Below are positions 3,615 to 63,604 of a stretch of DNA of 64,000 bases, piece by piece (the first letter of the stretch is position 1; each line of letters begins with the position of its first letter). A program made the translations under genes and the position numbers. The notes below the pieces were generated by a model, which searched no databases, was not told the origin of the DNA, and worked only from the letters and a program-made list of their open reading frames with translations. This DNA comes from a virus, in IMG/VR virus record IMGVR_UViG_3300031521_000025, positions 32,001 through 96,000 of that record, one strand, 5' to 3'.

Positions 3615-3666
3615 AAGAAATGCCTTAAAAAAATAATTACATTCTTGTTTTTTTAAGGCATTTCTT
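3615..3666 (+). terminator. Intrinsic terminator-like hairpin
   Basis: AAGAAATGCCTTAAAAAAA ... TTTTTTTAAGGCATTTCTT inverted repeat after ORF 3142-3594. Confidence 0.7.
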
Positions 3667-30756: not shown

Positions 30757-30877
30757 TTTTTTAGTCTTCTGGGGGAGAATAGATTACCAATCAACTTTAA
30801 GAATGCCAATAAAAAAAAGAAGAGATTGGTTAAAATTAACCCAAGAGAATTTAAAAATATTATATGGAAAAAAATAA

Positions 30878-30915
30878 CAAAAAAGGTGAAACAATAAAAT
30901 TTCACCTTTTTTGTT
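30878..30915 (+). terminator. Intrinsic terminator
   Basis: CAAAAAAGGTGAAA ... TTTCACCTTTTTTG. Confidence 0.7.
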
Positions 30916-31471: not shown

Positions 31472-32003
31472 AAAAGTCACATTACATGATAAAAATTTTG
31501 TCTTATTTAAGACACAAGATCAAATAAACAATACAATAAAGAAAATTGCAACAAGTATAAACAGTATGAACCCTATTAATTCAGTGTTTATCCCTGTTTT
31601 AAACGGTTCTTTTATGTTTACAAGTGATTTGTGTAAAGAACTAAAAATACTTCCGGAAATTCAATTTATTAAAGTCAAATCTTATGAAGATTTTGAATCA
31701 TCTGGCAAGGTTACTGAATTAATAGGCTTAAAAGATTCTTTAGAAGGAAAAACTGTTTTTATTATTGAAGATATAGTTGATACTGGTATAACAATATCAA
31801 ATCTTTATAATAAAATTAAACTTATGAATCCTAAAGAAATTTATGTAGTTACTTTATTGTTTAAACCAGATAAATATAATGGAGGTCTTGATATAAACAT
31901 TTTATATGGTTTTTCAATTGCAAATGATTTTGTGGTTGGTTATGGAATGGATTATAATGAACTCGGTAGAAATCTTAAAGAAATTTATGTTTTAAAAGAA
32001 TAA
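31464..32003 (+). CDS. hpt: Hypoxanthine-guanine phosphoribosyltransferase
   Basis: VLNGSFMF, KSY, PRPP-binding IIEDIVDTGIT, FVVGYGMDYNELGRNL; start revised to 31464. Confidence 0.92.
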   Translation: MNKKVTLHDKNFVLFKTQDQINNTIKKIATSINSMNPINSVFIPVLNGSFMFTSDLCKELKILPEIQFIKVKSYEDFESSGKVTELIGLKDSLEGKTVFIIEDIVDTGITISNLYNKIKLMNPKEIYVVTLLFKPDKYNGGLDINILYGFSIANDFVVGYGMDYNELGRNLKEIYVLKE

Positions 32004-32051
32004 AACATAAAAAAAGAGTTAAATTTGATTTTAACTCTTTTTTTATGTTTT
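32002..32051. terminator. Bidirectional terminator between convergent genes
   Basis: AAAACATAAAAAAAGAGTTAAA ... TTTAACTCTTTTTTTATGTTTT. Confidence 0.8.
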
Positions 32052-32631
32052 ATCTTACTCTTTTTGTTTTTTTAATGGTTTTATTAATGTAGCCTTTGCC
32101 TGTAATATATGCGTCAGAACAGTCTAAAACAAAATCTTCATATACTGTTTTTCCTTTATCTTTTCCTCTAGTTACTACCCTAGTTGGAAAATAGCTTTCT
32201 CCTAATTCAGCCAAAACATAAGCAAACATCTGCTCTTTTTGTTTCACTCCTGTGTTTTTTTTCATTATAGCGGTAGGAAATGCATATTTTCTTGAATCAG
32301 TTACAGTCATTGTATCAATCTTTAATCCAAGCTTATAACAGATTAATTGATAGCCAAAATTAGCTTGACTTAATGTAGTGGTAGTTTTAGAAGAACTATT
32401 CCCTCCAAACATCGCAACAAAAGCTTCTTCAATTACAACTTCGTCAATTTCGCTATGTCTTACAAGAATATCTTCTTTCAACCACTTTTCAAACTCTAAT
32501 ACTTTTTCTAATAAAGTATCTTTTTGAGGAACAGACCAGTGACTAATTTCAATTAATTCACATGTTTCTTTACTCCATATACAAAACCCCACAGTTTTCG
32601 TAGAAGCATCCAGACTCAATAATTTTTTCAT
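32050..32631 (-). CDS. RuvC-like Holliday junction resolvase
   Basis: LLSLDASTKTVGF, VVIEE, DCSDAY acidic catalytic pattern. Confidence 0.75.
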   Translation of the reverse strand: MKKLLSLDASTKTVGFCIWSKETCELIEISHWSVPQKDTLLEKVLEFEKWLKEDILVRHSEIDEVVIEEAFVAMFGGNSSSKTTTTLSQANFGYQLICYKLGLKIDTMTVTDSRKYAFPTAIMKKNTGVKQKEQMFAYVLAELGESYFPTRVVTRGKDKGKTVYEDFVLDCSDAYITGKGYINKTIKKTKRVR

Positions 32632-32947: not shown

Positions 32948-33116
32948 TTCATTTTTCTTTTTTGCAATAATTTTATTACCACATTGTTATAAACTTTTGT
33001 GTTTGTATTTACATGCTTTAGTTATAAATTAAAAAGTTTTTTACTATTTATTTTTACTTTATTTAGAAAAAAAAACTTATATTTAAAACATAATTATTAT
33101 AAACCAATAAATAAAA

Positions 33117-34277
33117 ATGTATAGTCATAACAATGTATTAAAAAATGCGATTCAATACTTCAATGGAGATGAATTAGCAGCTACTGTTTGGATGAACAAA
33201 TATTGTTTGAAAAACAACAATGGAGATTTTTTAGAAAAGTCCCCAGAGGATATGCACAAAAGACTTGCTAAAGAATTTGCAAGAATTGAAAAGAAATATC
33301 CAAACCCTATGTCAGAGGAAAAAATATTTGAATTAATTAATCGTTTTGATTATATTGTTCCTCAAGGCAGTCCAATGTCTGGTATAGGAAATAATCATAA
33401 AATTCAATCTATTTCAAATTGTTTTGTTATCAAAAACCCTTATGATTCTTATGCAGGGATATTTAAAACAGAGCAAGAAATGGTTCAATTAATGAAACGT
33501 AGAGGCGGAGTTGGGTTTAGTATACATTCTTTAAGACCTAAAGAAATGCCGACAAGCTCTGTTTCAGAAAAAAGTTCAGGAATTGTATTATTTTCAGAAA
33601 GATTTAGTAATGGAACAAGAGAAGTTGCTCAAGATGGAAGAAGAGGAGCTCTAATGTTAAGTTGTAGAGTTGATCATCCAGATATTGAAAGTTTTATAGA
33701 TGCTAAATTAGATTTAAAGAAAATTACAGGAGCAAATGTATCTATAATGATTACGGATGCTTTTATGGAAGCTGTAAAAGTTGATGGAGAATACGAATTA
33801 ACTTTCATAGGAGAAAAAGGATCAATCTCAAAGAAAATTAAAGCAAAGAAAGTTTGGGATAAAATAATGTTTAATGCGCATAAAAGTGCAGAACCAGGAA
33901 TTCTTTTTATGGATACTATTCATAATGAATCTCCTGTTAAAAATTACGGAGAAGAATGGGTAGAAACTTCCACTAACCCCTGTGTTACTGGAGATACAAT
34001 TGTAAAGACTTTAAATGGTGACTTAACTATAAAAGAAATTTTTGATAATAAAATTTTAGCAGATATTTATTCTTATAACACAGAAACTGAAAAAATAGAA
34101 GTTGATAAAATAGAAAATGTTTATTTAACTAGAAAAAACGCTAATGTTATAGAATTAGAATTAGATAATGGAGAAAGTATAAAATTAACCCCAGATCACA
34201 AAGTTTATACAAAAAACAGAGGCTGGACCCCTGCAGGTGTTTTAACAACAGAAGATATTTTATTAAAAATTGAGTAG
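33117..34277 (+). CDS. nrdJ: Class II (B12-dependent) ribonucleotide reductase, N-extein (288 aa) fused to N-intein
   Basis: SISNCFV, KRRGGVG, QDGRRGALM, ITGANVS, SAEPG, then STNP|CVTGDT where the intein begins. Confidence 0.92.
   Translation: MYSHNNVLKNAIQYFNGDELAATVWMNKYCLKNNNGDFLEKSPEDMHKRLAKEFARIEKKYPNPMSEEKIFELINRFDYIVPQGSPMSGIGNNHKIQSISNCFVIKNPYDSYAGIFKTEQEMVQLMKRRGGVGFSIHSLRPKEMPTSSVSEKSSGIVLFSERFSNGTREVAQDGRRGALMLSCRVDHPDIESFIDAKLDLKKITGANVSIMITDAFMEAVKVDGEYELTFIGEKGSISKKIKAKKVWDKIMFNAHKSAEPGILFMDTIHNESPVKNYGEEWVETSTNPCVTGDTIVKTLNGDLTIKEIFDNKILADIYSYNTETEKIEVDKIENVYLTRKNANVIELELDNGESIKLTPDHKVYTKNRGWTPAGVLTTEDILLKIE
33981..34274 (+). mobile_element. Split intein N-half (98 aa) in nrdJ
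   Basis: Block A CVTGDT, block B IKLTPDHKVYTKNRGW; followed by a stop codon. Confidence 0.92.
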
Positions 34278-34286
34278 AAATCCGTG

Positions 34287-34334
34287 CCGATTCTATATTT
34301 AAATAAAAAGAAAATATGGAAAATATAGAATCGG
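34287..34334 (+). promoter_or_regulatory. 14-bp perfect hairpin enclosing the endonuclease start codon
   Basis: CCGATTCTATATTT (34287-34300) / AAATATAGAATCGG (34321-34334); ATG 34316 lies in the loop; TATTTAAA (34296-34303) overlaps the 5' arm. Confidence 0.8.
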
Positions 34335-35113
34335 TAAAATCTTTATTAGAAGAAATTCAAAAAAGAGTTTTTTTAACAACAAGTACTTTAGTAAGGGTAG
34401 ATAAAAACGGAAAAACAGTTAGAGTGGGTTGTGTAGCTCACGATGAAAAGAAAATAAAAGAAGATCCTCGTTACAAAACAACAAAAGATTGGTTATATTA
34501 CAAATATATAAAAGAAGAATATAGTAGAAATTATTTAATTAAAGAATATAACTTAAAAGTTTCTTTATCTGTTTTTAAAAAAATATTTGAAATATTTGAA
34601 ATTCCTGCAAGATGTTTAGGTACTGTTACTAATAGAACAAAAAGCCTAAGAAGTGAAAAGTCAAAAAAAGAATATGAAAAAAAAACTGGTTGGTGGGATA
34701 AAAAAGTATTTAGAGTTAATAAAGAATATAGCGGTAGAGGAATTCAAGGTTATTATTTTAACAAATCACTTCAAAAATTTGTATGGCTGCGAAGCTCTTA
34801 CGAATATATTTACGCTAAGTGGTTAGATAATAATAACTGGGAGTGGGATGTAGAATTTAAAAGATACGAAGTAAAAGATAAAATTTATAGACCTGATTTT
34901 TTTATTTTCAACAATGGTGTTTTAAAAAAAATAGTTGAAATAAAAGGTTATTGGAATAATACAAGTTGGAAAGTAGAAGAATTAAATAAAATATTAAAAA
35001 TTGATGTTGCAATTATCAACAAAGAGGAAATTAAAAATTATACAATTAATGTTAGAAAAGATATAAAAGAATGGAAGGAAATAAGATTAAAGAAATTAGA
35101 ATTAAAAAAATAA
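34316..35113 (+). CDS. Free-standing putative homing endonuclease, PD-(D/E)xK type
   Basis: LRSSYE, YRPDFFI, IVEIKGYW; basic N-terminal region; sits between the intein halves. Confidence 0.75.
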   Translation: MENIESVKSLLEEIQKRVFLTTSTLVRVDKNGKTVRVGCVAHDEKKIKEDPRYKTTKDWLYYKYIKEEYSRNYLIKEYNLKVSLSVFKKIFEIFEIPARCLGTVTNRTKSLRSEKSKKEYEKKTGWWDKKVFRVNKEYSGRGIQGYYFNKSLQKFVWLRSSYEYIYAKWLDNNNWEWDVEFKRYEVKDKIYRPDFFIFNNGVLKKIVEIKGYWNNTSWKVEELNKILKIDVAIINKEEIKNYTINVRKDIKEWKEIRLKKLELKK

Positions 35114-35196
35114 ACATAATTCAAAACGAAGATGTTTATGATATTACAGTTAAAAAAAATCATAATTTTTTTGCAAATGGTTTGTTAATTCATAAT
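35071..35196 (+). mobile_element. Split intein C-half (42 aa) in nrdJ
   Basis: VYDITVKKNHNFFANGLLIHN followed by Cys+1. Confidence 0.93.
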
Positions 35197-36813
35197 TGCG
35201 GAGAAATCCCACTGTGTGAGTTTGATTCTTGCAGGTTATTATCTCTTAATTTATTTGGATACGTAGTTAATCCTTTTACACCTGAAGCATATTTTGATTT
35301 TGAATTATTCAAAGAACATGTTAATTATGGTCAAAGAATGATGGATGATATTGTTGATCTTGAGTTAGAAAAAATAGATATCATTTTAAATAAAATTGAA
35401 AACGACAAAGATGATGAAATTCTAAAACAAGTCGAAAGAGATTTATGGACAAATATTAAAAGAAAAGCAATATTAGGCAGAAGAACAGGTTTTGGGATAA
35501 CAGCCGAAGGTGATATGCTTGCTGCTTTAAATATTCGTTATGGAACTCCAGCCGCTACAATTTTTTCAATTGAAGTACATAAAACTTTAGCAATTTATAG
35601 TTACAAAACTAGTATAGATCTTGCAGAAGAAAGAGGTTGTTTTCCTATTTGGGATAAAGAAGTAGATGTAAAAAGTAATTACATTCAAAGAATTTTGCCA
35701 GAATTAAAACAAATAGGATATGAAGAAAAATATTTTAAATTTGGTAGAAGAAATGTAGCAAATCTTACAATTGCTCCTGCAGGATCTGTATCTTTATTAA
35801 CAAGAACTACTTCTGGAGTAGAACCTGCGTTTATGATTTCTTATAAAAGAAGAAAAAAAATAAACCCTGAAGATGAAGGTGTAAAAGTTAATTTTGTTGA
35901 TGTAAACGGTGACGCTTGGGAAGAGTATAATGTTTTTCATCCTAAATTTAGTTTATGGGCTAAAGTAAATGGATATGATACAGATTATATTAAAACATTA
36001 CCTCAGAGCGAATTAGATAAAATTATTGAAAAATCTCCTTATTATAAAGCAACTTCTGCTGATGTTGATTGGGTAGAAAAAGTTAAGATGCAAGGAGCTA
36101 TTCAAAAATGGATAGATCATTCAATTAGTGTTACTGTAAATATCCCAAAAGAAACTACTGTTGAAACTGTAAATAAAATTTACACTGCAGCTTGGGAATC
36201 TGGCTGTAAAGGAATGACTATTTATAGAGATGGAAGTAGAAGTGGAGTAATGATTTCAAATGACGAACAAGATAGTAAATTTGAATATGTTGATTCTGCT
36301 AAAAGACCTAAAGAATTAGAATGCGACATTCATCACTTATCAGCATTAGGCAGCAAATGGATTGTATTAATTGGATTACATGAAAATAAACCTTATGAAA
36401 TTTTTGCACTTAAAGATGTCCAAGATAATGTTGAATTTGCAAAAAACTATACTAAAGGTAAAATTGTAAGAAGAAAAAAAGGTGTTTATGATTTAGTAAG
36501 TATAAAAGATCAAGTTTTACTAAAAGATATTGCTTCTTATTTTGAAACTGATGACGAAAGAGCTTCAACCAGAAGATATTCTTTAATGTTAAGACATAGA
36601 ATACATCCTAAATATATTGTTTTTCAAGCAGAAGAAGAACCAGGATCTATTGTAGCTTTCAACAAAGCAATTGCTAGAACTTTAAAAAAATATTTAACTG
36701 AAGAAGATTTAAAATCTGTAGGAAAAGTATGTAAAGAATGTGGTTCTGAAAACTTAGCTATACAAGAAGGTTGTTTAGTTTGCTTAAATTGTGGAAGCTC
36801 TAAATGCGGATGA
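35071..36813 (+). CDS. nrdJ: C-intein fused to class II RNR C-extein
   Basis: ...LIHN|CGEIPL restores NPCGE; RRTGFG, TIAPAGS, TTSGVEP, SISVTVN, CKGMTIYRDGSR, C-terminal Cys cluster. Confidence 0.92.
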   Translation: MEGNKIKEIRIKKINIIQNEDVYDITVKKNHNFFANGLLIHNCGEIPLCEFDSCRLLSLNLFGYVVNPFTPEAYFDFELFKEHVNYGQRMMDDIVDLELEKIDIILNKIENDKDDEILKQVERDLWTNIKRKAILGRRTGFGITAEGDMLAALNIRYGTPAATIFSIEVHKTLAIYSYKTSIDLAEERGCFPIWDKEVDVKSNYIQRILPELKQIGYEEKYFKFGRRNVANLTIAPAGSVSLLTRTTSGVEPAFMISYKRRKKINPEDEGVKVNFVDVNGDAWEEYNVFHPKFSLWAKVNGYDTDYIKTLPQSELDKIIEKSPYYKATSADVDWVEKVKMQGAIQKWIDHSISVTVNIPKETTVETVNKIYTAAWESGCKGMTIYRDGSRSGVMISNDEQDSKFEYVDSAKRPKELECDIHHLSALGSKWIVLIGLHENKPYEIFALKDVQDNVEFAKNYTKGKIVRRKKGVYDLVSIKDQVLLKDIASYFETDDERASTRRYSLMLRHRIHPKYIVFQAEEEPGSIVAFNKAIARTLKKYLTEEDLKSVGKVCKECGSENLAIQEGCLVCLNCGSSKCG

Positions 36814-36835
36814 TAATTTTCAAATTACAATAAAG

Positions 36836-36875
36836 AAAACCCTTAAATAAAATAAAAATATTTAAGGGTTTTTTG
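36836..36875 (+). terminator. Intrinsic terminator after nrdJ
   Basis: AAAACCCTTAAATA ... TATTTAAGGGTTTTTT. Confidence 0.7.
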
Positions 36876-36901
36876 TTTTATTTCTTATATTAATAATAAA
36901 A

Positions 36902-37090
36902 ATGAAAAAGATAAATGTTGCAAGATTAGAACTTTGTTTAGAGTCGAAAAGTGTATCTCCTGAAATGAAAAATATTATTACAATAGCTGTAACTAATTTT
37001 ATTTCTGTAAATTGTGGCGATGTAGCTCAAACGTCACATATTCAAAATTATATGCTTTTAGACGATTTAGGTTTATTAATAGAATATTAA
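36902..37090 (+). CDS. Hypothetical protein
   Basis: Short ORF with CTTATATTAA upstream. Confidence 0.5.
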   Translation: MKKINVARLELCLESKSVSPEMKNIITIAVTNFISVNCGDVAQTSHIQNYMLLDDLGLLIEY

Positions 37091-37095
37091 AAAAA

Positions 37096-37275
37096 ATGAA
37101 AATGAAAAAGAAAAATACACTTTGGTTGCATAATCATGCTGGAGACGAAGCTTTTTTAGGTTTAGGTAAAGATCATGTTATTGTTGACAGAGAAGATTGG
37201 GAACAAGCACTTTCTTATAGAAAAATAATTGAAGAAATTGAAGAAATAATGGAAGAAAAGTTAAAAAAAGTGTAA
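37096..37275 (+). CDS. Hypothetical protein
   Basis: Start revised to ATG 37096 to avoid overlap. Confidence 0.5.
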   Translation: MKMKKKNTLWLHNHAGDEAFLGLGKDHVIVDREDWEQALSYRKIIEEIEEIMEEKLKKV

Positions 37276-37328
37276 AAAAAAACTTATATTAATATTAGAA
37301 AAAAGTAATTAATAAAAAAAATAAAAAA

Positions 37329-38126
37329 ATGAAAACATTTGGAATTTTAAGCATTAGTGGAGGGATGGATTCTACCGCACTACTAATAAACATGTTGGAG
37401 AAAAACATGGATGTTAGATGTCTTTCGTTCAATTATGGACAAAAACATAAAGTTGAACTTGAAAGAATTAAAAAAAATATTGAATATCTTAAATCTAAAG
37501 GATTTAATGTTGAACATAATGTTGTTGATATTTCTATTTTAGGTAAACTTTACAATTCTGCTTTAACAACAGAAGGTGTTGCTGTACCTGAAGGTCACTA
37601 TGCTGAAGAAAATATGAAAGCAACAGTAGTTCCTAACAGAAATGCAATTTTTAGTTCTATGGTTTACGGTTACGCTTTATCTCTTGTAAAAGATGAAGAC
37701 GGAGGTCAAGCATATATAGCTTTAGGTATTCATTCAGGTGATCATGATATTTATCCAGATTGTAGAGCAGAATTTAGAGATGCTTTAGAATATGCATTTA
37801 AAATTGGCAACTGGGATTCAGAAAAAGTAGAATACTATACACCGTATATCGATGGAGATAAATTTAGCATTCTTCAAGAAGCTGAAGTAAATTGCAAAAA
37901 ACTAGGACTTGATTTTCAAGTAATTTTCGGAAATACAAATACTTGTTATAACCCTAATAGCAATGGAGAATCATGCGGAAAATGTGGTTCTTGTCAAGAG
38001 CGTTTATTAGCTTTCAACAAACTAGGATATAAAGATCCTGTAACATATTCTTCTGATTATAACGAGTTAATTACAAACGTTTTAAAGTCGGAAGAAAATT
38101 TTAAAAATTCACAAAAAAAAGCATAA
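37329..38126 (+). CDS. queC: 7-cyano-7-deazaguanine synthase
   Basis: SGGMDS PP-loop, FNYGQKH, VPNRNAIF, YPDCR, TCY...CGKCGSC zinc site. Confidence 0.93.
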   Translation: MKTFGILSISGGMDSTALLINMLEKNMDVRCLSFNYGQKHKVELERIKKNIEYLKSKGFNVEHNVVDISILGKLYNSALTTEGVAVPEGHYAEENMKATVVPNRNAIFSSMVYGYALSLVKDEDGGQAYIALGIHSGDHDIYPDCRAEFRDALEYAFKIGNWDSEKVEYYTPYIDGDKFSILQEAEVNCKKLGLDFQVIFGNTNTCYNPNSNGESCGKCGSCQERLLAFNKLGYKDPVTYSSDYNELITNVLKSEENFKNSQKKA

Positions 38127-38222
38127 ATTTTCGAGAGTTTTCTGAAAATTCTCATATTTATAATAAATAAAGTAATGGTTCCGGGTAACCTATTTAGTAT
38201 TAATTAAAAAACAAAAAAAACA

Positions 38223-39062
38223 ATGACAAACGCAGCAACAAAATTGCAAGAGACGTTATCACGTCTAAACAAAATGACCAGTCAAAAAAAAGGTAGTGGA
38301 ACTGGCAAAAAAATCAATTATTGGAAACCAAAACAAGGTAAAAATGAATTAATCGTTTTACCGTTCGCAGCTTTAGGTGATCCGTTTTTCGAATGGGGAG
38401 AACACAAAGGTCTTTTAGAGCCTTCTTATTTATCAATCCCTTGTGCACAACATTTTGATGGTAGTCCATGTCCAATTTGTGAGGTTGTAAAAGATCTTAA
38501 AAAAGCGGATTGGAAAGGAAATAAAGAAATGTGGGCTCCAATCGAAACAAAAGTTCGCTATTATTCACCTGTAGTTGATTTAGCTAATATTGAAGCAGGT
38601 ATTCAATGGTTTAGTTACGGAAAAACAGTGTTAAGTCAATTCCAAACTTGGCTTGTAAATCTTGAAGAAGATGAACTTCCTTTTTACAGTGTTGAAAATC
38701 CTGAAAAAATTATTGTTAACTATGATAAAGAAGCTGATGCTGCTTTAAAATATAAGTTAGACAAAAAAGCTATCAAAAAACTTCCTGAAGGTTTAGATCT
38801 TGAAGAACTAGTTGAAGGTATGGAAGATTTAGGTGCACTTTTAAATCAATACAAAAGAGATGATAATGCATTAGCTCAAATTGTTGATGATTATTTAAAA
38901 GTATTTGCTGAATCTCTTTCTGATGATGATGAAGAAGAAGAAAAAACAACTGAAACTCCTGAAGTAAAAGAAACATCAGAAAGTAATGATGATGACGATG
39001 ATGACGACGATAAAGATGTTGATGACACTCCAAAGTTGAAATCTCTTAAGAAAAAACAATAA
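38223..39062 (+). CDS. Single-stranded DNA-binding protein (gp32-like)
   Basis: YWKPKQG, C...CPICE, WFSYGK, long acidic C-tail; directly upstream of recA. Confidence 0.75.
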   Translation: MTNAATKLQETLSRLNKMTSQKKGSGTGKKINYWKPKQGKNELIVLPFAALGDPFFEWGEHKGLLEPSYLSIPCAQHFDGSPCPICEVVKDLKKADWKGNKEMWAPIETKVRYYSPVVDLANIEAGIQWFSYGKTVLSQFQTWLVNLEEDELPFYSVENPEKIIVNYDKEADAALKYKLDKKAIKKLPEGLDLEELVEGMEDLGALLNQYKRDDNALAQIVDDYLKVFAESLSDDDEEEEKTTETPEVKETSESNDDDDDDDDKDVDDTPKLKSLKKKQ

Positions 39063-39071
39063 CAACTCTTT

Positions 39072-39105
39072 AAAAAAGAGAGAATTTACTTCTCTCTTTT
39101 TTTTT
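39072..39105 (+). terminator. Intrinsic terminator
   Basis: AAAAAAGAGAGAA ... TTCTCTCTTTTTTTTT. Confidence 0.7.
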
Positions 39106-39141
39106 ACAATTCAAACAAATTTTAATCTAATATAATTAAAA

Positions 39142-40401
39142 ATGGCAAAAGAAAATAAAGTTGTCGTAGACGATATCTTTGCAAAATTAATAGCTGAACA
39201 AAACAGTATTTCTCCAGGAGCAGCTGTTGCAGGCGATGAAATGTTCGCTGCAGTAAAAATTTGGATCCCAACAGGTTCTACAATTTTGGATACTATTATA
39301 GCTAACAAACCAGGTGGTGGTTGGCCTGCTGGAAGAACTGTTGAAATATATGGACAAGAATCTATTGGAAAATCTACATTAGTTTTTTCAGGATTAGCAA
39401 ACGTTCAAAAAATGGGAGGTATTGCTATGTATTTTGATGTTGAGCAAGCAGGTTCTCAAGAAATGATGGAAAATAATGGAGTAGATTTAAGTAGGTTAAT
39501 TGTTTCTAAATTAACTTCTATTGAAGAGATTTTTAAAGTTTTAGAAAAAAACCTTCAAACAATTATTAACACTAAATCATATAAAGATAAACCTGTTCTT
39601 GTTTGTATGGATTCATTAGCTCAAATGACTACGGATGCAGAATTGGAAGCGGATTATGATTTTAATATGAATATTAATCTTAAAAAAGCAGTTCAAATTG
39701 GAAAAGCTTTAAGAAAGATAACTCCATATTTAAATGAAGCAAATGCTTGTTTAATCATTATCAACCAGTTACGCGATATGCCTGGGACGACATATGGAGA
39801 TCCTACCACCACGCCAGGGGGTAAAGCCCTCAAGTTTGCTGCGTCTGTTCGCATAAAATTAATGGGAAAAACCCCCGTTCGTGTTTTAGATCCTATTACA
39901 CAAGAGATTTATGACAATGCTGTAGAAGAATGGTATAATGAATGTGAAATTTGGAAAGAAAATGGCGGAGGGAAAACTGGAGCGAAAAAACCAGCAAAAC
40001 CAAAGAAAACAGATTTTAAAGGAAGTGAAGTAACTGTTGGAAATGATGTTACAGCAACTCTTGTTAAGAATAAAGTAGGACCTCCAAATAGAGAAGCAGA
40101 GTTTAGAATTATCTTTACTGAAGGTATTATTGAAGAAGAAGCATGGTTTGATTATGCTACAAAATTCAAAATTATTGAAAATGAAAATGCTTTTACTTAT
40201 AAGTTTTCTGAAAAAAGTAAAATTGTTTTTGAAAATGAATTAGGCCCAATTCTTTTTAAAAGAGATGAATGGTTGGAGAACGTAATGGTGGATGTTGACA
40301 TTAGAGAACAAGTAAAAAACCAAATTGTTAAAATGTTAACACAATCAACTAAAGGAGCTAAAGCAGCACCTGCTAAATTAGGCGAAGAAGACGAGGAATA
40401 A
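39142..40401 (+). CDS. recA: RecA/UvsX recombinase
   Basis: IPTGS, Walker A EIYGQESIGKST, DSLA, IINQLR, TTPGGKALKFAASVRI, VKNKVGPP. Confidence 0.95.
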   Translation: MAKENKVVVDDIFAKLIAEQNSISPGAAVAGDEMFAAVKIWIPTGSTILDTIIANKPGGGWPAGRTVEIYGQESIGKSTLVFSGLANVQKMGGIAMYFDVEQAGSQEMMENNGVDLSRLIVSKLTSIEEIFKVLEKNLQTIINTKSYKDKPVLVCMDSLAQMTTDAELEADYDFNMNINLKKAVQIGKALRKITPYLNEANACLIIINQLRDMPGTTYGDPTTTPGGKALKFAASVRIKLMGKTPVRVLDPITQEIYDNAVEEWYNECEIWKENGGGKTGAKKPAKPKKTDFKGSEVTVGNDVTATLVKNKVGPPNREAEFRIIFTEGIIEEEAWFDYATKFKIIENENAFTYKFSEKSKIVFENELGPILFKRDEWLENVMVDVDIREQVKNQIVKMLTQSTKGAKAAPAKLGEEDEE

Positions 40402-40404
40402 GCT

Positions 40405-41379
40405 ATGCAAAGTAGAATTCTGTACATAGATGGCTTTAATTTGTTTCAAGCGAATTATCGCTCTAATATAGCGCTAGATACAAATGGAGAACCTATAGGA
40501 GGGTTTATTGGAGTACTACAACAATTGAGGGGGTTAATTTACAAATTTTCCCCTCAAAAAGTACTTATGGTATTCGATGGACCAGATGCAGGTTTAAGAA
40601 GAAGAAGTTTGTATAGTGGATATAAATCAAAAAGAAGAGCAAAAAAACGATGTGCTACAGTAAAATTAGGAGATGATTTGATCCAAACAGATAATGAATC
40701 AGAGCAATTAGAAAAATTGTTTAATGCTTTAAGAGTTTTGCCTGTACAATTGATTTCAGTTCCTTTTTACGAAGCCGATGATGTAATTTCTTATTTAGTT
40801 GCTAGAAACCCTGAATATAACAATATAATTGTATCTAACGATAAAGATTATTTACAAAGAATAACTGAAACTACACATGTTTATCAATTTACGAAAAAAA
40901 AATTGATGGATTTGAAAAAAGTAGAAGAAGAATTTGAAATTAATCCTAAAAATATTCTTTATTATAGATCAATAGTTGGAGATAGTTCGGATGAATTAAT
41001 AGGGATTAAAGGATTAGGTAAAGATATTATAAATAAAATATCTGCGTTTAAAGAAAGAGCTTTTGATTCTTTTGGAGATTTTTGGAGTGAAATAGAAAGT
41101 CTTGAAGAAGGGAAAAGTAAAAAAATAAAACTACTTAAAGAAAATCAACAGCAAGCTTTGTTAATGTATCAATTAATGAGATTGGATGAAACTAGTTTAA
41201 ATCAAAGAGCTATTAATTTAGTAAGATCTCAATTAGATGAACAATTAGATAAGCCTTTTTCCAGTATTGGGTTTAAAATCTTTTGCACAAAAAACAAGCT
41301 TAATATTCAGTTAAAAGATCCTGATAGTTTTTTAAGTGGGTTTTTTGCACTTAAAAGAAAAATAGAAATAAATACTTAA
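40405..41379 (+). CDS. 5'-3' exonuclease / flap endonuclease (T4 RNase H-like)
   Basis: IDGFN, VFDG, YKSKR, EADDVI, VSNDKDYLQ, VGDSSDELIGIKGLG. Confidence 0.9.
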   Translation: MQSRILYIDGFNLFQANYRSNIALDTNGEPIGGFIGVLQQLRGLIYKFSPQKVLMVFDGPDAGLRRRSLYSGYKSKRRAKKRCATVKLGDDLIQTDNESEQLEKLFNALRVLPVQLISVPFYEADDVISYLVARNPEYNNIIVSNDKDYLQRITETTHVYQFTKKKLMDLKKVEEEFEINPKNILYYRSIVGDSSDELIGIKGLGKDIINKISAFKERAFDSFGDFWSEIESLEEGKSKKIKLLKENQQQALLMYQLMRLDETSLNQRAINLVRSQLDEQLDKPFSSIGFKIFCTKNKLNIQLKDPDSFLSGFFALKRKIEINT

Positions 41380-41380
41380 A

Positions 41381-41420
41381 ATAAAACAAGCTAAAATTAA
41401 AACATTTTAGCTTGTTTTAT
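41381..41420 (+). terminator. Intrinsic terminator
   Basis: ATAAAACAAGCTAAAAT ... ATTTTAGCTTGTTTTAT. Confidence 0.7.
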
Positions 41421-41478
41421 TTATAAAACTGAGAAAAAAATTCTTATATTTAAAATGTAATTAGTTATATAAAAAAAC

Positions 41479-42810
41479 ATGCAAGAAAATAATTTAAAAA
41501 AGTTCGGTCAAGATTTTCAATTATCAGTGCTTTCTCTTTTTTTTCAAGATAAATCTTTTACAAACAAAATTAAAGATATTTTAGAACCTGACTATTTTGA
41601 TAATAAGTATTCTAAATGGTTTTGTGAAAAAGGTTTAGAATACTTAGAAAAATATATGAACTTTCCATCTTCTGTAAAGGTTTTTAATATTTTAAAAACA
41701 ATAATTGAAAAAGAAGTTGAAGAAAAAATGGCTAAAACATATCTTAGTGTTTTAGAAAAAATTTCAGAAGTTGAGTTAAGCGATAGAGAATATGTAGAAG
41801 CAGAAGTTTTTAATTTTTGTTTTACTAAATTTGCGTTAAAACAATTAGAAGAACAAAAAAATCAAATATTGTTAAACAATTTTGATGATGCAAGAAGGGT
41901 TGCTTTTAGTACATATACACCTATAGCAAAAAACAGTCAAGAGTTTTCTTTAAAAAAAGATTATAAGATTGCTTCAAAAGCCAAAGAACATTTAAATCCA
42001 ATTCCTTTTCCGTTTAAAACTTTTACAGAAAACACAAGTGGAGGTCCTGGTGCTGGAGATTTAGCTATCATTATGGCTCAATCTAACTTTGGAAAAAGTA
42101 ACTTTTTAGTTGCTTGGGCAAGACACGCGGCTGAAGTTGGACATAACGTTATTTATTTTACTTTAGAAACCAAAGGAGAGCAATTAATTGATAGAGCAAT
42201 TGCAGGGTTAACAAGAATTAACCAAGCGGAGTTAATAAACCATGAAAAATTAATTGAATCTAGGGTTAATAAAGTTTTAGGTGATGTTAAGTTTATTAAA
42301 ATAAAATCTACCTTAGCTCGAATAGAAGTAGTTAAACAAAAAATTGAAGAAGAAAAAGCAAACGGCTTCTTTCCTGATTTTGTTATAATTGATGGACTAA
42401 ATCAATTAAAAGCTTCTAAAGGTATGAATTTCAATGGAAATTCAAATGATAAATTTGAATATCTTTCTGAAGAACTTAGAGACATGGGAGAAGAATATGG
42501 AATCCCTATAGCAACCGCCTTTCAGAGTAACAGATGTTTAGCTTTAAACACTTTAGTGGATTTAAAAGATAAAGGTAAAGTTAAAATAATATCTTTAAAA
42601 GAAGGCGATGAAATTTTAACACATAAAGGGTATAAGAAAGTTACTAAAATATACCCAACAGAAAAACAGCCTGTTTATAAAATCAAGTTAAAATCTGGTA
42701 AAGAAATAATATGCTCGGGAAAACATGAGTTTCCTTTAGAAAATGGAGAATTATTAAGCATAGAAGAAGGGTTGCAGCAAGGTTTCAAACTATTGACAAA
42801 AAAAATATAG
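41479..42810 (+). CDS. dnaB: DnaB/gp41-like replicative helicase, N-extein (352 aa) fused to N-intein
   Basis: Walker A AQSNFGKS, YFTLE, VIIDG, ATAFQSNR|CLALNT. Confidence 0.9.
   Translation: MQENNLKKFGQDFQLSVLSLFFQDKSFTNKIKDILEPDYFDNKYSKWFCEKGLEYLEKYMNFPSSVKVFNILKTIIEKEVEEKMAKTYLSVLEKISEVELSDREYVEAEVFNFCFTKFALKQLEEQKNQILLNNFDDARRVAFSTYTPIAKNSQEFSLKKDYKIASKAKEHLNPIPFPFKTFTENTSGGPGAGDLAIIMAQSNFGKSNFLVAWARHAAEVGHNVIYFTLETKGEQLIDRAIAGLTRINQAELINHEKLIESRVNKVLGDVKFIKIKSTLARIEVVKQKIEEEKANGFFPDFVIIDGLNQLKASKGMNFNGNSNDKFEYLSEELRDMGEEYGIPIATAFQSNRCLALNTLVDLKDKGKVKIISLKEGDEILTHKGYKKVTKIYPTEKQPVYKIKLKSGKEIICSGKHEFPLENGELLSIEEGLQQGFKLLTKKI
42535..42807 (+). mobile_element. Split intein N-half (91 aa) in dnaB, gp41-8-like
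   Basis: CLALNT...QPVYKIKLKSGKEIICSGKHEFP; resembles gp41-1/gp41-8 N-inteins and uses an NR|S site like gp41-8 (recalled, not aligned). Confidence 0.92.
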
Positions 42811-42818
42811 TTGTTTGA

Positions 42819-42877
42819 AAAGAAAGTTGTATTTAAATATAAAATGGAAAATAAATTAAAAAAATACAACTTTCTTT
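42819..42877 (+). promoter_or_regulatory. 16-bp perfect hairpin enclosing the endonuclease start codon
   Basis: AAAGAAAGTTGTATTT (42819-42834) / AAATACAACTTTCTTT (42862-42877); ATG 42844 lies in the loop; TATTTAAA (42830-42837) overlaps the 5' arm. Confidence 0.8.
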
Positions 42878-44067
42878 GTTGTAAAAAATACAAAGATCTT
42901 GTTTTGACTAACGATCAAATTGAAGAAATAAAAAAAATTCAAGATTTTTACGGCAAGAAAAAATTCAACGATCAATGGGGTAAAATAAAACATTTAGTAA
43001 AGGCAAAATATTCTCCTGATTGGGTTGAGAAAATTATTTCTTTAAAAAAAACAAATAACTCTTCTTTAAAGTGGTTTATTGTGTTATATGGAGAAGAGGA
43101 AGGAAAATTAAAATACCAAGAAAAAAACATCAAAGTAGGAGGATCTTTAAATTCTTATATTTTAAAATATGGAAAAGAAGAAGGTTCTGAAAGATATAAA
43201 AAAGCTTGTGAAAGTAAAAAAGGTCAATCTACAGAACAATGGTATATAAATAGATATGGAGAGGAAGAAGGAAAACTAAAATGGAAAAAAATAAAATCTT
43301 CATGGAAGGAAGCTAATTTAAAAACAATAAAAGAAGGAAAAAGAAAAGGAAATGGAAGAAGTTTAAAAGAATATGTTTTAAGATATGGAGAAAAAGAAGG
43401 AGAAAGTTTATGGAGTAAAAGAAACTTGAAGCAAAGTCAAAGGTTTAGTTTGCAATATTATACAGATAAATACGGAATAAAAGATGGAAAAAATAAATGG
43501 CAAGAATATTGTAAAAAAATGGATAAAGGATCTTTACAATATTTTACGAAAAAATACGGAGAAGAAGGGTTAAACAGATATAAAGAAAGAAGTAAAGTCT
43601 GTAATTTTGGAGGCATGGGTTTAGAAAACTTAATTTTAAAATACGGAGAAGAAGAAGGGAGAAATAAATACCAAATATGGGTAAATAAAACCATGATTAA
43701 TAAAAACAAAAGTATTAATTATAGTAAAATTTCTCAAGAATTATTTTGGAACATTTACAATGAACTACCTGTAAGTTTAAAAGAAAAAGTGAAATTTGCA
43801 GAATTAAACGAAGAGCAAATGTTTAAAGTTTGGAAAAATGGAATGACTGTAATATTTGTAGATTTTAAACTTAATAAATGTATAATTGAATTTCAAGGAA
43901 CTTATTGGCATAGTTTTTTAGAAGTTCAAGAAAAAGATAAAAAAAGAATTGATTTTTTAGAAAACTATGGTTATAAAGTCTTATGTTTAAAACAAAAAGA
44001 TTATTTAAAAAATAAAATTAGCGTTACTAAAAATTGTATAGAGTTTTTACTTAAAGAAAGCAAATAA
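42844..44067 (+). CDS. Free-standing Vsr-like (EDxHD/DUF559-type) putative homing endonuclease with N-terminal tandem repeats
   Basis: Seven SL..Y..KYGEEEG...(Y/W) repeats, then SKISQELF, FVDF, IIEFQGTYWH, DKKRIDFLENYGYKVL. ATG 42844 preferred over TTG 42811. Confidence 0.8.
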   Translation: MENKLKKYNFLCCKKYKDLVLTNDQIEEIKKIQDFYGKKKFNDQWGKIKHLVKAKYSPDWVEKIISLKKTNNSSLKWFIVLYGEEEGKLKYQEKNIKVGGSLNSYILKYGKEEGSERYKKACESKKGQSTEQWYINRYGEEEGKLKWKKIKSSWKEANLKTIKEGKRKGNGRSLKEYVLRYGEKEGESLWSKRNLKQSQRFSLQYYTDKYGIKDGKNKWQEYCKKMDKGSLQYFTKKYGEEGLNRYKERSKVCNFGGMGLENLILKYGEEEGRNKYQIWVNKTMINKNKSINYSKISQELFWNIYNELPVSLKEKVKFAELNEEQMFKVWKNGMTVIFVDFKLNKCIIEFQGTYWHSFLEVQEKDKKRIDFLENYGYKVLCLKQKDYLKNKISVTKNCIEFLLKESK

Positions 44068-44068
44068 A

Positions 44069-44200
44069 ATGATTAAAGAATTAGAGCTATTAGAATTAGA
44101 TGAAATAGAAAGTATAGAGTTTTTGGGAGAAGAAGAAACTATTGATATTTGTGTAGAAGATACTCATATGTTTTTTGCAAACGACATATATACCCACAAT
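44069..44200 (+). mobile_element. Split intein C-half (44 aa) in dnaB
   Basis: DEIESIEFLGEEETIDICVEDTHMFFANDIYTHN followed by Ser+1. Confidence 0.93.
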
Positions 44201-44518
44201 TCGGGTTTCAACACAGAATACGCAGATGAACAAAGTATTGGTAAAGCAATTGAAGTATATCAAGTATGTGATTTAATGATTTTCTTTACACAATCCATAG
44301 GGATGCAAGATCAAGAAGAATGTTATGGTCAATTAATGAAAAACCGCTTAGGTAAGAAAGGGATAGCTTTAAAAATTGGATATAACCCAAATCATGCTAC
44401 TTTTGAAGAATTGGAAGTCGTTAGTAGATTAAGTTTAATGGATAAAGGAGAAAAAGGTTCTGTTTTAAGAGGAATTGATAAAATAAGAAAGCAAAATTTA
44501 GAAAGAGCTCAAAAATAA
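44069..44518 (+). CDS. dnaB: C-intein fused to helicase C-extein
   Basis: ...IYTHN|SGFNTE..., VCDLMI, LMKNRLG (arginine-finger motif). Confidence 0.9.
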   Translation: MIKELELLELDEIESIEFLGEEETIDICVEDTHMFFANDIYTHNSGFNTEYADEQSIGKAIEVYQVCDLMIFFTQSIGMQDQEECYGQLMKNRLGKKGIALKIGYNPNHATFEELEVVSRLSLMDKGEKGSVLRGIDKIRKQNLERAQK

Positions 44519-44534
44519 TTAATAAAATAAAAAA

Positions 44535-44906
44535 ATGATAAGAAAAAGAATAATAGCTATTGATTTTGATGGTACAATTTTTGAAAATGCATGGCCTGAA
44601 GTGGGAACAATAAGAGAAGATGCGGTAGAAGTTATACAAGCTTTACATGAAAATGGAAATAAAATCATTATTTGGACATGTAGAGGCGGAGAAAATTTAA
44701 AAGATGCATTAAATGCTTTAGGAAAATATCAAATCCCTTATGATGCTGTAAATGAAAACATAGTTGAGGTGAAAACTGATTTTAATCCATATCCTAAAAT
44801 ATATTATGATATTTTAATTGATGATCGAAATTTAGGTGGAGTGTTAAGCTGGAAAGAAATAGGGGAAATACTATTAAAAGAAAAAAACCCAATTAGTTTA
44901 ATTTAG
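44535..44906 (+). CDS. HAD-superfamily hydrolase
   Basis: IIAIDFDGTI, IWTCR, KIYYDILIDDRN. Confidence 0.85.
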   Translation: MIRKRIIAIDFDGTIFENAWPEVGTIREDAVEVIQALHENGNKIIIWTCRGGENLKDALNALGKYQIPYDAVNENIVEVKTDFNPYPKIYYDILIDDRNLGGVLSWKEIGEILLKEKNPISLI

Positions 44907-44909
44907 AAT

Positions 44910-45665
44910 ATGAAAAATGTATTAATTTTATCAAGTAGTGGTTTAGATTCTACTTATTTAGTCTATGATAATTTAAAAAAAGGAAATAGAGTAACTTCAA
45001 TTTATGTTGAAGTTACAAATAATTCTTGTAAAGTTGAAGTGGAAAAAAAAGCTTTAGTAAACCAAGAATTATTTTTTCAAAAAAACTTTCCAAATTTAGA
45101 TTATTATCTTAAATTAGATAATACAAGTGTTTCTTTAAGAGATGTCGATTATGATTTGATTTTTACTCAAATACCAATCTGGGTTTTTGCAGTTATTTTT
45201 AACACAAGAAATATCGATGAAGTTCAAATTGGTTACGTTATGAATGATGATGCAATATCTTATTTACAAGACATTAAAGACATATATAATCAATTTAGTT
45301 CGATAAGTACTAGAGAACTGCCTGAATTAACTTTTCCTTTAGCTAAGTTAAAAAAACACGATTTTATTTCTAAATTACCAAAAGAGTTGTTGGAAAATGT
45401 TACTTTTTGTGAATGGCCTTCCGTGGTTGAAGGGATAATGAAACCATGCGGAGATTGTCCTGCTTGCAGAAGATATAAAAACGAAGGACTGTATAATAAA
45501 ATAATTAAAGAAAGCCACCAAGTTTATACTATTAATTCAAAAGATTTTGCAGTATTAAGTGATGAAATAAAAACAGAAAACTATGGAAGTATTAACCCGC
45601 CAGAACAGTTGCAAGTTATAACTCCTTATCAATATAAACTTGAATTTCCAAGTGATAATAATTAA
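44910..45665 (+). CDS. Divergent QueC-like PP-loop ATPase
   Basis: LSSSGLDST PP-loop and FCE...PCGDCPAC zinc site; lacks YGQ, PxRN and YPDC. Confidence 0.7.
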   Translation: MKNVLILSSSGLDSTYLVYDNLKKGNRVTSIYVEVTNNSCKVEVEKKALVNQELFFQKNFPNLDYYLKLDNTSVSLRDVDYDLIFTQIPIWVFAVIFNTRNIDEVQIGYVMNDDAISYLQDIKDIYNQFSSISTRELPELTFPLAKLKKHDFISKLPKELLENVTFCEWPSVVEGIMKPCGDCPACRRYKNEGLYNKIIKESHQVYTINSKDFAVLSDEIKTENYGSINPPEQLQVITPYQYKLEFPSDNN

Positions 45666-56150: not shown

Positions 56151-56990
56151 ATGAGATCACCCGTAAAATTAAGCGAATCAAAAAAAAGACTCTTTTTAGA
56201 ACCAGAAGTCGTAACTTATTTAAAAAACGTTGAAAAGCTTAAAAAGAATTTTACAAAAGATGAAGAAAGAGAGTTAATTATTAGAGCTCAAAAAGGAGAT
56301 ATTGAAGCTAGAAATGCTTTAGTAGAAGATAATTTAAAGTTTGTAGTAGCTTGTGCGAAAGAATTTCATAATCACAAAACAAACATTAGAGATTTAATTA
56401 GTAGCGGTAATTTAGGGTTAATAAATGCAATTAATAAATATGATCTTACAAAAGATTCAAAATTAATATCTTGCGCAGTTTGGTGGATTAAAGCCGAGTT
56501 GCAAAATTACATTTACGACAATACTTTAGTTCACATTCCTCTTAATAAAATTAAAGAAGTTGAAAAAGTTAATGCTAGAATTAAAAGTACAGAAGAAAAA
56601 GGTGATTTTTTAAACGCTGAAGATACATTTTCTTCTTCTAAAGTAAGTTATTCTCAAGCATCAAGTGGAATGGAAAATCTTGTAAGTTTAGACATTTCAA
56701 ATAGTTTAGAAAACGAAGACGCTTACGAAATCCCTTCAAACAATACTATTGATTCTTATAGTATTTTTAAATCTAAAGATAATCTATATAACGTAAATAA
56801 AGTTTTAAAAGTATTAACACCACTTGAAAAAGAATTATTCGTTGAAAAATATGGAATTTATGGAGAAGAAGCTAGAACAGACGAAGTTTTGTGTACAAAG
56901 TTTGGAATAAGTAGTTTTGTTGTAAAAAAAACAATTAAAAGTTCTATTGAAAAAATTAATAAAGTTATTAAAATTGAAGAATTAGTATAA
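56151..56990 (+). CDS. RNA polymerase sigma-70 family factor (group 1/2-like, lacking region 1.1)
   Basis: EERELI, NLKFVVACAK, DLISSGNLGLINAINKYD, ISCAVWWIK, degenerate region 4. Confidence 0.9.
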   Translation: MRSPVKLSESKKRLFLEPEVVTYLKNVEKLKKNFTKDEERELIIRAQKGDIEARNALVEDNLKFVVACAKEFHNHKTNIRDLISSGNLGLINAINKYDLTKDSKLISCAVWWIKAELQNYIYDNTLVHIPLNKIKEVEKVNARIKSTEEKGDFLNAEDTFSSSKVSYSQASSGMENLVSLDISNSLENEDAYEIPSNNTIDSYSIFKSKDNLYNVNKVLKVLTPLEKELFVEKYGIYGEEARTDEVLCTKFGISSFVVKKTIKSSIEKINKVIKIEELV

Positions 56991-61704: not shown

Positions 61705-61756
61705 AAGGTTTTTAATTGTATTTTTACTCGTTATTTAAAATACAATTAAAAACCTT
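61705..61756 (+). terminator. 20-bp perfect inverted repeat upstream of dnaE (terminator/regulatory hairpin)
   Basis: AAGGTTTTTAATTGTATTTT (61705-61724) / AAAATACAATTAAAAACCTT (61737-61756). Confidence 0.65.
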
Positions 61757-63361: not shown

Positions 63362-63376
63362 CGTCATAATCTATAA

Positions 63377-63604
63377 ATATACCAAAAAGATGATGTTAAC
63401 GTAAGAACACTAAGGTCAGCAAAAGATGTATGGGAAAAAGATAGAAAAAGAAAAGTTGATATAATTAATGCTTTAAATTCAGAAGTAATTGTTATATGGG
63501 AAAATGATTGGAAAACAAAAAAAGAAGAAATAATAAATTATATAAAATATGTTGTACAAAATAAAATCGATAAAGGAAATACAATCAGAAAAAAAACTTG
63601 TTGA
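63377..63604 (+). pseudogene. Remnant (C-terminal 75 codons) of a Vsr-like endonuclease
   Basis: No start codon; reads IYQKDD...SAKDVWEKDRKRK...EVIVIWENDWKTKKEEII, typical of the Vsr/EDxHD C-terminus. Confidence 0.7.

Follow-up and report, generated by a model that had tools for sequence, protein, structure and literature searches.

The DNA analysed here, called the window throughout, comprises 64,000 nt of a single 111,457-bp phage contig with a G+C content of 27%, on which genes for a T4-type baseplate, gp32, a UvsX/RecA-like protein and helicases are found. One of the genes in the window, the class II ribonucleotide reductase gene nrdJ, is split into two open reading frames with a free-standing nuclease gene between them (Table 1). 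The N-half is made up of an N-extein (33117-33980) and the N part of a split intein (33981-34274), after which comes a TAG stop codon, and the C-half, which opens with the other part of the intein, overlaps the end of the nuclease ORF by 43 nt. The division is also apparent from profile matches, which place positions 1-212 of the ribonucleotide reductase barrel in ORF 33117-34277 and positions 212-523 in ORF 35071-36813, and from Intein_splicing matches at the C-terminal end of the N-half and the N-terminal end of the C-half, with junctions NP/C... and ...HN/CGE (the slash marking the junction). No promoter-like motif was seen for the C-half itself, and no terminator-like site was seen between the N-half, the nuclease and the C-half. 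Just past the nrdJ unit, at window 37329-38126, lies a QueC homologue (E = 1e-50), which suggests 7-deazaguanine modification of the phage DNA.

A second gene in the window, encoding a DnaB/gp41-type helicase, shows the same fractured-gene features: two ORF halves with intein parts, and an intervening nuclease whose motifs are intact and whose product matches I-Bth0305I (PDB 3r3p, E = 0.003). For the nrdJ nuclease no Pfam family lies above the cut-off, the database matches are weak (DUF790, and T7 endonuclease I at E = 0.06), and no Vsr or GIY-YIG signature was found in the searches run. Its 380 homologues come exclusively from metagenomes, with no match among GenBank phages, and a core of the PD...E-x-K type is invariant in the family (proteins P0001-P0120). 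Fractured genes may thus harbour, in this enzyme, a third type of nuclease in addition to the GIY-YIG and Vsr-like families that were named in 2009.

Table 1. Features of the two split genes and of the nuclease cassettes within them, in window coordinates
Feature	Position	Strand	Remarks
Promoter-like motif TATATTTAAA	33078..33087	+	A-run before motif; 29 nt 5' of nrdJ N-half ATG
nrdJ N-half	33117..34277	+	Pfam Ribonuc_red_lgN, Ribonuc_red_lgC, Intein_splicing
Ancestral 5'-arm motif AAATCCGTG	34280..34288	+	Canonical family motif; 3' partner CAYGGATTT at ATG lost in window
Hairpin 5' arm	34285..34300	+	Perfect Watson-Crick 34287-34300; U-A and G-U at base
Promoter-like box TATATTTAAA	34294..34303	+	Spans 5'-arm end into loop
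Hairpin loop, 20 nt, A-rich	34301..34320	+	Short leader, ATG 34316-34318, most of codon 2
Nuclease ORF, free-standing, 265 aa	34316..35113	+	PD...ExK-type motif intact
Hairpin 3' arm	34321..34336	+	Within nuclease codons 2-7
nrdJ C-half	35071..36813	+	Intein C part 35071-35196 (42 residues), C-extein from 35197
Terminator-like short-loop hairpin with T-run	36829..36879	+	Closes nrdJ unit
Promoter-like motif ahead of helicase N-half	41445-41454		
DnaB/gp41-type helicase N-half + intein N	41479..42810	+	Second fractured gene
Twin hairpin	42819..42877	+	Perfect 16-bp arms 42819-42834 / 42862-42877; 27-nt loop with ATG 42844
Box TGTATTTAAA	42828-42837	+	Spans end of twin-hairpin 5' arm
Vsr-like nuclease ORF (DUF559, I-Bth0305I-type)	42844..44067	+	Between helicase halves
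Intein C part + helicase C-half	44069..44518	+	Start 2 nt past nuclease stop codon

The start of the nrdJ nuclease is enclosed by an inverted repeat whose arms (34287-34300 and 34321-34334) are fully complementary over 14 bp, and which in RNA becomes a stem of 16 pairs through the addition of G34286-U34335 and U34285-A34336. The 14-bp 3' arm opens with the last base of codon 2 and closes with the first base of codon 7, so that relative to the nuclease start the whole stem pairs -31 to -16 with +6 to +21, while the 5' arm terminates within TATTTAAA (34296-34303), which is part of the promoter-like box. A sequence-only reading of this DNA had described a perfect 14-bp inverted repeat with the ATG and an A-rich leader in a 20-nt loop, its 3' arm over codons 2-7 and its 5' arm ending inside a motif, and all of this is seen at exactly the coordinates claimed. 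Its proposal that the RNA folds also has computational support, in that RNAfold gives -20.1 kcal/mol for the 81-nt region compared with -8.2 +/- 2.6 for dinucleotide shuffles (z = -4.66), none of the 200 shuffles being as good. An Rfam scan of window 33000-45000 returned no relevant match at E <= 1.

Such repeats are rare. Perfect Watson-Crick repeats with arms of 14 bp or more and loops no longer than 40 nt number eight in the window, compared with 0.05 in first-order Markov simulations. Two of the eight have long loops, of 20 and 27 nt, and both of these lie around nuclease start codons; the remaining six are short-loop intergenic hairpins that resemble terminators. These six, perfect over 14-24 bp, are found at window 3615-3666, 30876-30915, 32000-32053, 36836-36872, 41379-41422 and 61705-61756, with A-runs and T-runs on their flanks, and several directly precede a TATATTTAAA-type box; they look like (bidirectional) terminators.

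The nrdJ hairpin, which sets in 8-10 nt after the stop codon of the N-half, might likewise be envisioned to end or process the nrdJ-N message, through partial termination, RNase III-type processing or protection of its 3' end, in which case the internal promoter would be the chief source of mRNA for both the nuclease and the C-half. That the C-half has no promoter motif of its own and that the 3' arm of the twin hairpin ends U-rich would fit such a role, as would the proposal that the cassette gives the upstream gene its stop signals and the downstream gene its promoter (Dassa 2009; PMC2677866). We nevertheless regard this explanation as unlikely. In the six window hairpins that clearly resemble terminators, loops of 6-14 nt are combined with T-runs, whereas the nuclease hairpins have loops of 20-27 nt, the one at nrdJ lacks a T-run (no U-run follows 34336), and a terminator scan calls neither of them. 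In addition, termination or processing would leave unexplained why, in most relatives, the 3' arm coincides with the start codon or adjoins it.

The twin hairpin at the helicase nuclease has the same layout as that at nrdJ, with arm sequences that are unrelated; it begins 8 nt after the stop codon of the helicase N-half and folds at -15.8 kcal/mol (z = -4.26). When 115 contig genes were scored for start-enclosing stems, both nuclease ORFs reached 35, the next gene 22 and the median gene 14, so that no other gene comes close to the two nucleases in the strength of a stem whose arms lie on either side of the ATG. The stem ranked third (11 bp, loop 35 nt) is located at C1 6745-6810 of the contig, 25.2 kb before the window start, and encloses the first ATG of an ORF that carries an intein C part and the C-half of the terminase large subunit. 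At dnaE, which is split and has a decayed nuclease, a weak remnant hairpin is present at window 63358-63399; its 10-bp stem includes one G-U, its 3' arm has an ATG that opens a 4-codon ORF, its loop contains a perfect T4-type TATAAATA (63373-63380), and its fold is not significant (z = 0.33). Within the helicase unit, a TTATTTAAA box at window 44001-44009, inside the 3' end of the nuclease ORF and 59 nt before the C-half ATG, could be an embedded promoter for the helicase C-half, by comparison with the promoters inside T4 seg genes.

The box at the end of the nrdJ 5' arm is one of many copies in the genome. As a 10-mer, T[AG]TATTTAAA / TTATTTTAAA, it has 51 matches on both strands, about 17 of which sit 6-29 nt 5' of an ATG on the same strand; these gene-upstream copies are found on both sides of divergent junctions and ahead of nrdJ (33078), the helicase (41445), and tape-measure and baseplate-hub genes. 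Because the motif is recurrent, orientation-specific and located upstream of genes across the genome, TATATTTAAA is plausibly a promoter. It resembles the Bacteroidota -7 element TAHHTTTG (PMC6847099), but has A in place of the final G, at -5. By alignment to that element, transcription is predicted to start at about 34306 at nrdJ and about 42840 at the helicase, both within the hairpin loops, and, whichever base is used, a -10-type element lying in the 5' arm would place the first nucleotide of the transcript 3' of that arm. Replication and structural genes are preceded by the same core as well, so that it does not mark the nuclease promoters as "late".

Several features complicate how the boxes at the two nucleases are read. 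An A-run is common at many of the other motif sites and is absent from both nuclease boxes. Both contain TATTTAAATA, a 10-nt palindrome (window 34296-34305 and 42830-42839), so that their orientation can be read only from the neighbouring bases; at the helicase the minus strand fits the consensus TATATTTAAA better than the plus strand, and an antisense start there, reading back into the intein-N region, is possible. Seven further sites in the genome are double-stranded in the motif in the same way. The T4 late box TATAAATA was also considered as the promoter of this genome and was rejected, being present at most 40 nt upstream of 3 genes only, in two of them 0-6 nt from the ATG. Most copies of NATAAATA adjoin an ATG and seem to belong to the A-rich context of initiation. 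A division of TATATTTAAA copies into early and late classes by their A-run and T-run flanks was dropped, since it gave no clean relation to gene function, and a scan with the sigma-70 consensus was uninformative, with counts not above those in shuffles. The phage does carry a gene for a sigma-70-family factor (window 56151-56987; phrog_351, E = 1e-34), which may read the genome-wide TATATTTAAA motif.

In this phage Shine-Dalgarno (SD) sequences are scarcely used: GGAG, GAGG or AGGA occurs at -20 to -4 in 4 of 116 leaders, compared with 7% in random sequence, and the leader of the nrdJ nuclease has none. The leaders of the genome are 58% A, and in SD-less Bacteroidota it is known that mRNA structure and upstream adenines tune initiation (PMC6847099). 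In the long context (-80 to +80), freeing the region -12 to +18 of the nrdJ nuclease is computed to cost 15.4 kcal/mol, which ranks 1 of 115 genes and is to be compared with a genome-wide median of 4.5 and a 90th percentile of 7.9 kcal/mol; for transcripts begun at 34301-34310 the cost is 1.8-3.7 kcal/mol. For the helicase nuclease, the long-context values are 4.1 kcal/mol for -12 to +18 (rank 66 of 115), 9.7 for -15 to +20 (rank 9) and 13.8 for -20 to +25 (rank 6). The AUG itself is unpaired in both hairpins, lying in loops of 20 nt (nrdJ) and 27 nt (twin), and since the arms of the helicase hairpin lie further out, the computed block at that gene hinges on the footprint assumed for the ribosome or on steric hindrance by the closed loop.

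The generality of this arrangement can be judged from related loci, of which there are 160 for the nrdJ-nuclease family and 80 for the helicase-nuclease family; about 140 were analysed for stems, and gene starts on the same contigs served as controls. Stems of 9 bp or more without gaps that extend into the start region are present in 70% of the nrdJ-nuclease family and 62% of the helicase-nuclease family, compared with 14% of control gene starts, the family percentages being approximate because the first-ATG rule misplaced the start in some loci (in L032 and L067 the real ATG comes after the 3' arm). Stem scores differ from controls with Mann-Whitney P values of 4e-24 and 1e-10, respectively. 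A TATTTAWA or TATAAATA box lies within 50 nt upstream in 42% and 60% of the two families, respectively, and in 6% of controls, and in 49 of the 52 loci that have both stem and box, the box is situated in the loop or where 5' arm and loop meet. Nearly all of these loci are fractured genes, as an intein-C-like start (...HN[CST]) is found at the nuclease stop in 68 of 74 nrdJ-nuclease and 47 of 53 helicase-nuclease loci. Arm spacing varies from 4 to 45 nt, and the layout seen in the window, with the 3' arm in the first codons, recurs in L050, L061, L069 and L082 and in L190, L193, L210 and L245.

Most members of the nrdJ-nuclease family share a canonical stem, whose 5' arm, AAATCC-N-TG, comes immediately after the stop codon of the upstream ORF and pairs with CA-N-GGATT(T) at the ATG. 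In these members the 5' arm starts 2-5 nt past that stop codon (TAA-aa-ATCC...), so close that a ribosome ending translation there could reach it, and for them translational coupling is plausible: the stem would be melted at its base by ribosomes that finish the N-half, the nuclease start would be exposed transiently, and the long mRNA would yield nuclease at a low, fixed ratio to the N-half. For the window we consider coupling very improbable, as the stem in the window begins far enough from the stop codon (8-10 nt) that a terminating ribosome would open only about 3 of its 16 pairs, the gap at the twin hairpin is 8 nt, and the conserved promoter-like box in the loop would have no role.

RNAalifold on 26 sequences carrying the canonical stem gives 12 pairs, 7 of them with compensatory changes; 90.4% of its cells are paired, compared with 76.3% in shuffles, and its covariation score is 0.437, compared with 0.191 in shuffles (0 of 500 as high) and 0.06-0.09 in slid registers. 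On the sense strand G-U combinations outnumber A-C (23 vs 10), which favours a sense RNA over an element that acts at the level of DNA. The canonical arm bases are also conserved in sequence besides pairing (L010-L165, alignment A3), and are kept even in L064 and L074, where the ATG begins a mini-ORF of only 3 codons and the true start is located further downstream.

The stem at nrdJ in the window is a newer one. The closest relative, L006 (84% amino acid identity), carries both stems: the ancestral one, UCCGUGC/GCAUGGA, pairs the AUG, and the new one is 12 bp long. One pair differs by a compensatory change, being A-T in L006 and G-C in the window, and the window has two added C-G pairs; the fold of L006 taken alone is not significant (z = -1.33). 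At L001 (61% identity) a different stem is found, together with an outer helix that pairs the AUG (-15.4 kcal/mol, z = -3.4). The earlier expectation of covariation in homologues accordingly holds for the canonical family stem, whereas for the window-specific stem compensatory support amounts to one pair, from the sole close relative that keeps the stem; a single-protein scan of IMG/VR for further close relatives with a stem of the window type gave one locus, and genome contigs gave none. The arm sequences have thus been replaced with the geometry kept, which argues for selection on the hairpin itself.

These comparisons also bear on whether the repeat acts as DNA, for example as a cruciform or as an operator for a dimeric nuclease or another protein, or is a functionless relic of cassette insertion. 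There is precedent in I-TevI, which binds an operator overlapping its own promoter and represses itself (PMC2988022), and a protein-binding site would be consistent with the conservation of the family arm bases AATCC.TG / CA.GGATT beyond pairing and with the palindromic promoter core. However, the arms of the two window hairpins are unrelated to each other, the spacing of 4 to 45 nt among relatives is wide, the pairs covary, and the sense-strand G-U pairs outnumber the A-C that the antisense strand or DNA would require; the replacement of arms with kept geometry speaks against a relic as well. We judge a DNA-level element or a relic to be the least probable of the explanations considered.

The explanation that we think probable, on the strength of the sequence comparisons and the computed folds, is a translational clamp on the read-through mRNA combined with an internal promoter that gives a clamp-free mRNA. 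The hairpin would be an RNA element of the mobile nuclease cassette inserted between the split-intein halves of nrdJ. An mRNA arising at the presumed nrdJ promoter, the motif at 33078..33087, and running through the C-half would contain both arms, and its nuclease initiation region would be clamped, which in a phage relying on open, A-rich, SD-less leaders should strongly lower translation of the nuclease, while the nrdJ N-half and C-half, each with an open start, would go on being translated. An mRNA initiated at the internal TATATTTAAA (predicted start about 34306) would instead have a leader of some 10 nt, without the 5' arm, and its nuclease start would be open, so that nuclease output would be set by its own, probably weak, promoter and not by transcription of the host gene. 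Co-transcription of the unit, the position of the start, the block to translation itself and any early/late timing are inferred here, and insulation of nuclease expression from host-gene transcription is safer wording than a T4-style early/late switch. Both central steps had been put forward from the sequence, and the analysis supports each at the level of sequence: the block on the long mRNA through the computed opening energy, the highest of 115 genes, and the internal transcript without the 5' arm through the genome's gene-upstream 10-mer, which straddles the arm end and has its predicted start 3' of the arm. The suggestion that all this would work without an SD sequence agrees with the near absence of such motifs from the leaders of the genome.

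A more specific form of the clamp can be proposed, namely that arms flanking an unpaired AUG suffice, independently of any SD sequence, to silence the nuclease on the read-through mRNA, that selection keeps this geometry, and that the role is insulation and not timing. We give this slightly less than an even chance. Three features can be cited for it: the geometry of the clamp, with the 5' arm ending in the promoter box and the 3' arm just past the AUG; the replacement of an ancestral AATCCGTG/CAYGGATT stem by one recruited from codons 2-7; and an unrelated stem of the same geometry that arose on the helicase nuclease.

The principle itself has been published since 2009. Dassa, London, Stoddard, Schueler-Furman and Pietrokovski (NAR; PMC2677866) reported hairpins on 15 of 16 fractured-gene endonucleases, ten of them with TATAAATA and with two conserved motifs forming the stem, and proposed the same translational role by analogy with Aeh1 mobE. 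To judge from its sequence, the nrdJ locus is a fractured gene as they defined it, with split host ORFs, intein parts, a nuclease and a hairpin with a box. As in their loci, the host gene is broken into two ORFs that carry the halves of a split intein, the gap is occupied by a free-standing endonuclease ORF whose 3' end adjoins or overlaps the C-half start, and a 5' hairpin carries a promoter-like box; NrdJ and gp41 loci were among their hosts, and the helicase-embedded nuclease studied here falls in their Vsr-like family. The claim that control of this kind inside a fractured gene would be new was therefore overstated. The differences are that their hairpins are described as "upstream of initiation codons" with the T4/Aeh1 late box TATAAATA, whereas the nrdJ hairpin carries TATATTTAAA as its box, has its 3' arm in codons 2-7 and the AUG in its loop, and belongs to an SD-less genome, and that the present locus is part of a 111-kb phage genome and not of a short read assembly.

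The experimentally tested precedents are T4 I-TevI and Aeh1 mobE (Gott 1988; Gibb & Edgell 2007, 2009; review PMC2988022). For I-TevI, I-TevII, I-TevIII, segB and Aeh1 mobE, a hairpin keeps the ribosome binding site hidden on early or middle transcripts, and the transcript from a late promoter is too short to form it (PMC2988022). The nrdJ locus is analogous in that the nuclease gene sits in a longer transcription unit, that a stable hairpin would form on the long transcript only, and that the putative promoter is placed so that its transcript would miss the 5' part of the hairpin; as with mobE, it is a ribonucleotide reductase gene that is split, but the halves of Aeh1 nrdA have no intein. 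The T-even and Aeh1 hairpins pair an SD sequence about 8 nt before the AUG, whereas here there is no SD and the arms flank the AUG instead of covering it, and their promoters are of the gp55-dependent late type (or middle), which makes a temporal switch, whereas the motif here is not class-specific. Two of the features that define the T4 type, SD pairing and a late-class TATAAATA gp55-dependent promoter, are absent. The analogy with I-TevI drawn in the sequence-only reading consequently stands for the layout of a hairpin with a putative internal promoter and fails for the late-class promoter, as the same core precedes nrdJ and structural genes. There is also a likeness to the T4 late genes e (lysozyme), soc, 49 and some others, which are silent on a long early transcript through a hairpin and active from a promoter inside it (PMC2988022, PMC3014915); unlike the genes discussed here, they are not mobile nuclease genes, and they are SD-dependent and experimentally tested. 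Overall, the system is not new in kind, and what it adds is a variant: SD-less, with the AUG in the loop, the 3' arm in codons 2-7 and a motif that is not T4-like.

Selfish nucleases that break essential phage genes must be expressed without harm to the host gene. The nrdJ locus and about 120 related split-gene loci suggest, from their sequences, that the cassettes of two unrelated nuclease families almost universally include a hairpin with an internal promoter, and that the stem can be rebuilt from new sequence with its geometry kept. The SD-less version constitutes a natural test of how ribosomes that ignore SD sequences respond to structure flanking an exposed start codon, and the signature of a hairpin plus box is a useful annotation marker for live nuclease cassettes in split-intein genes.
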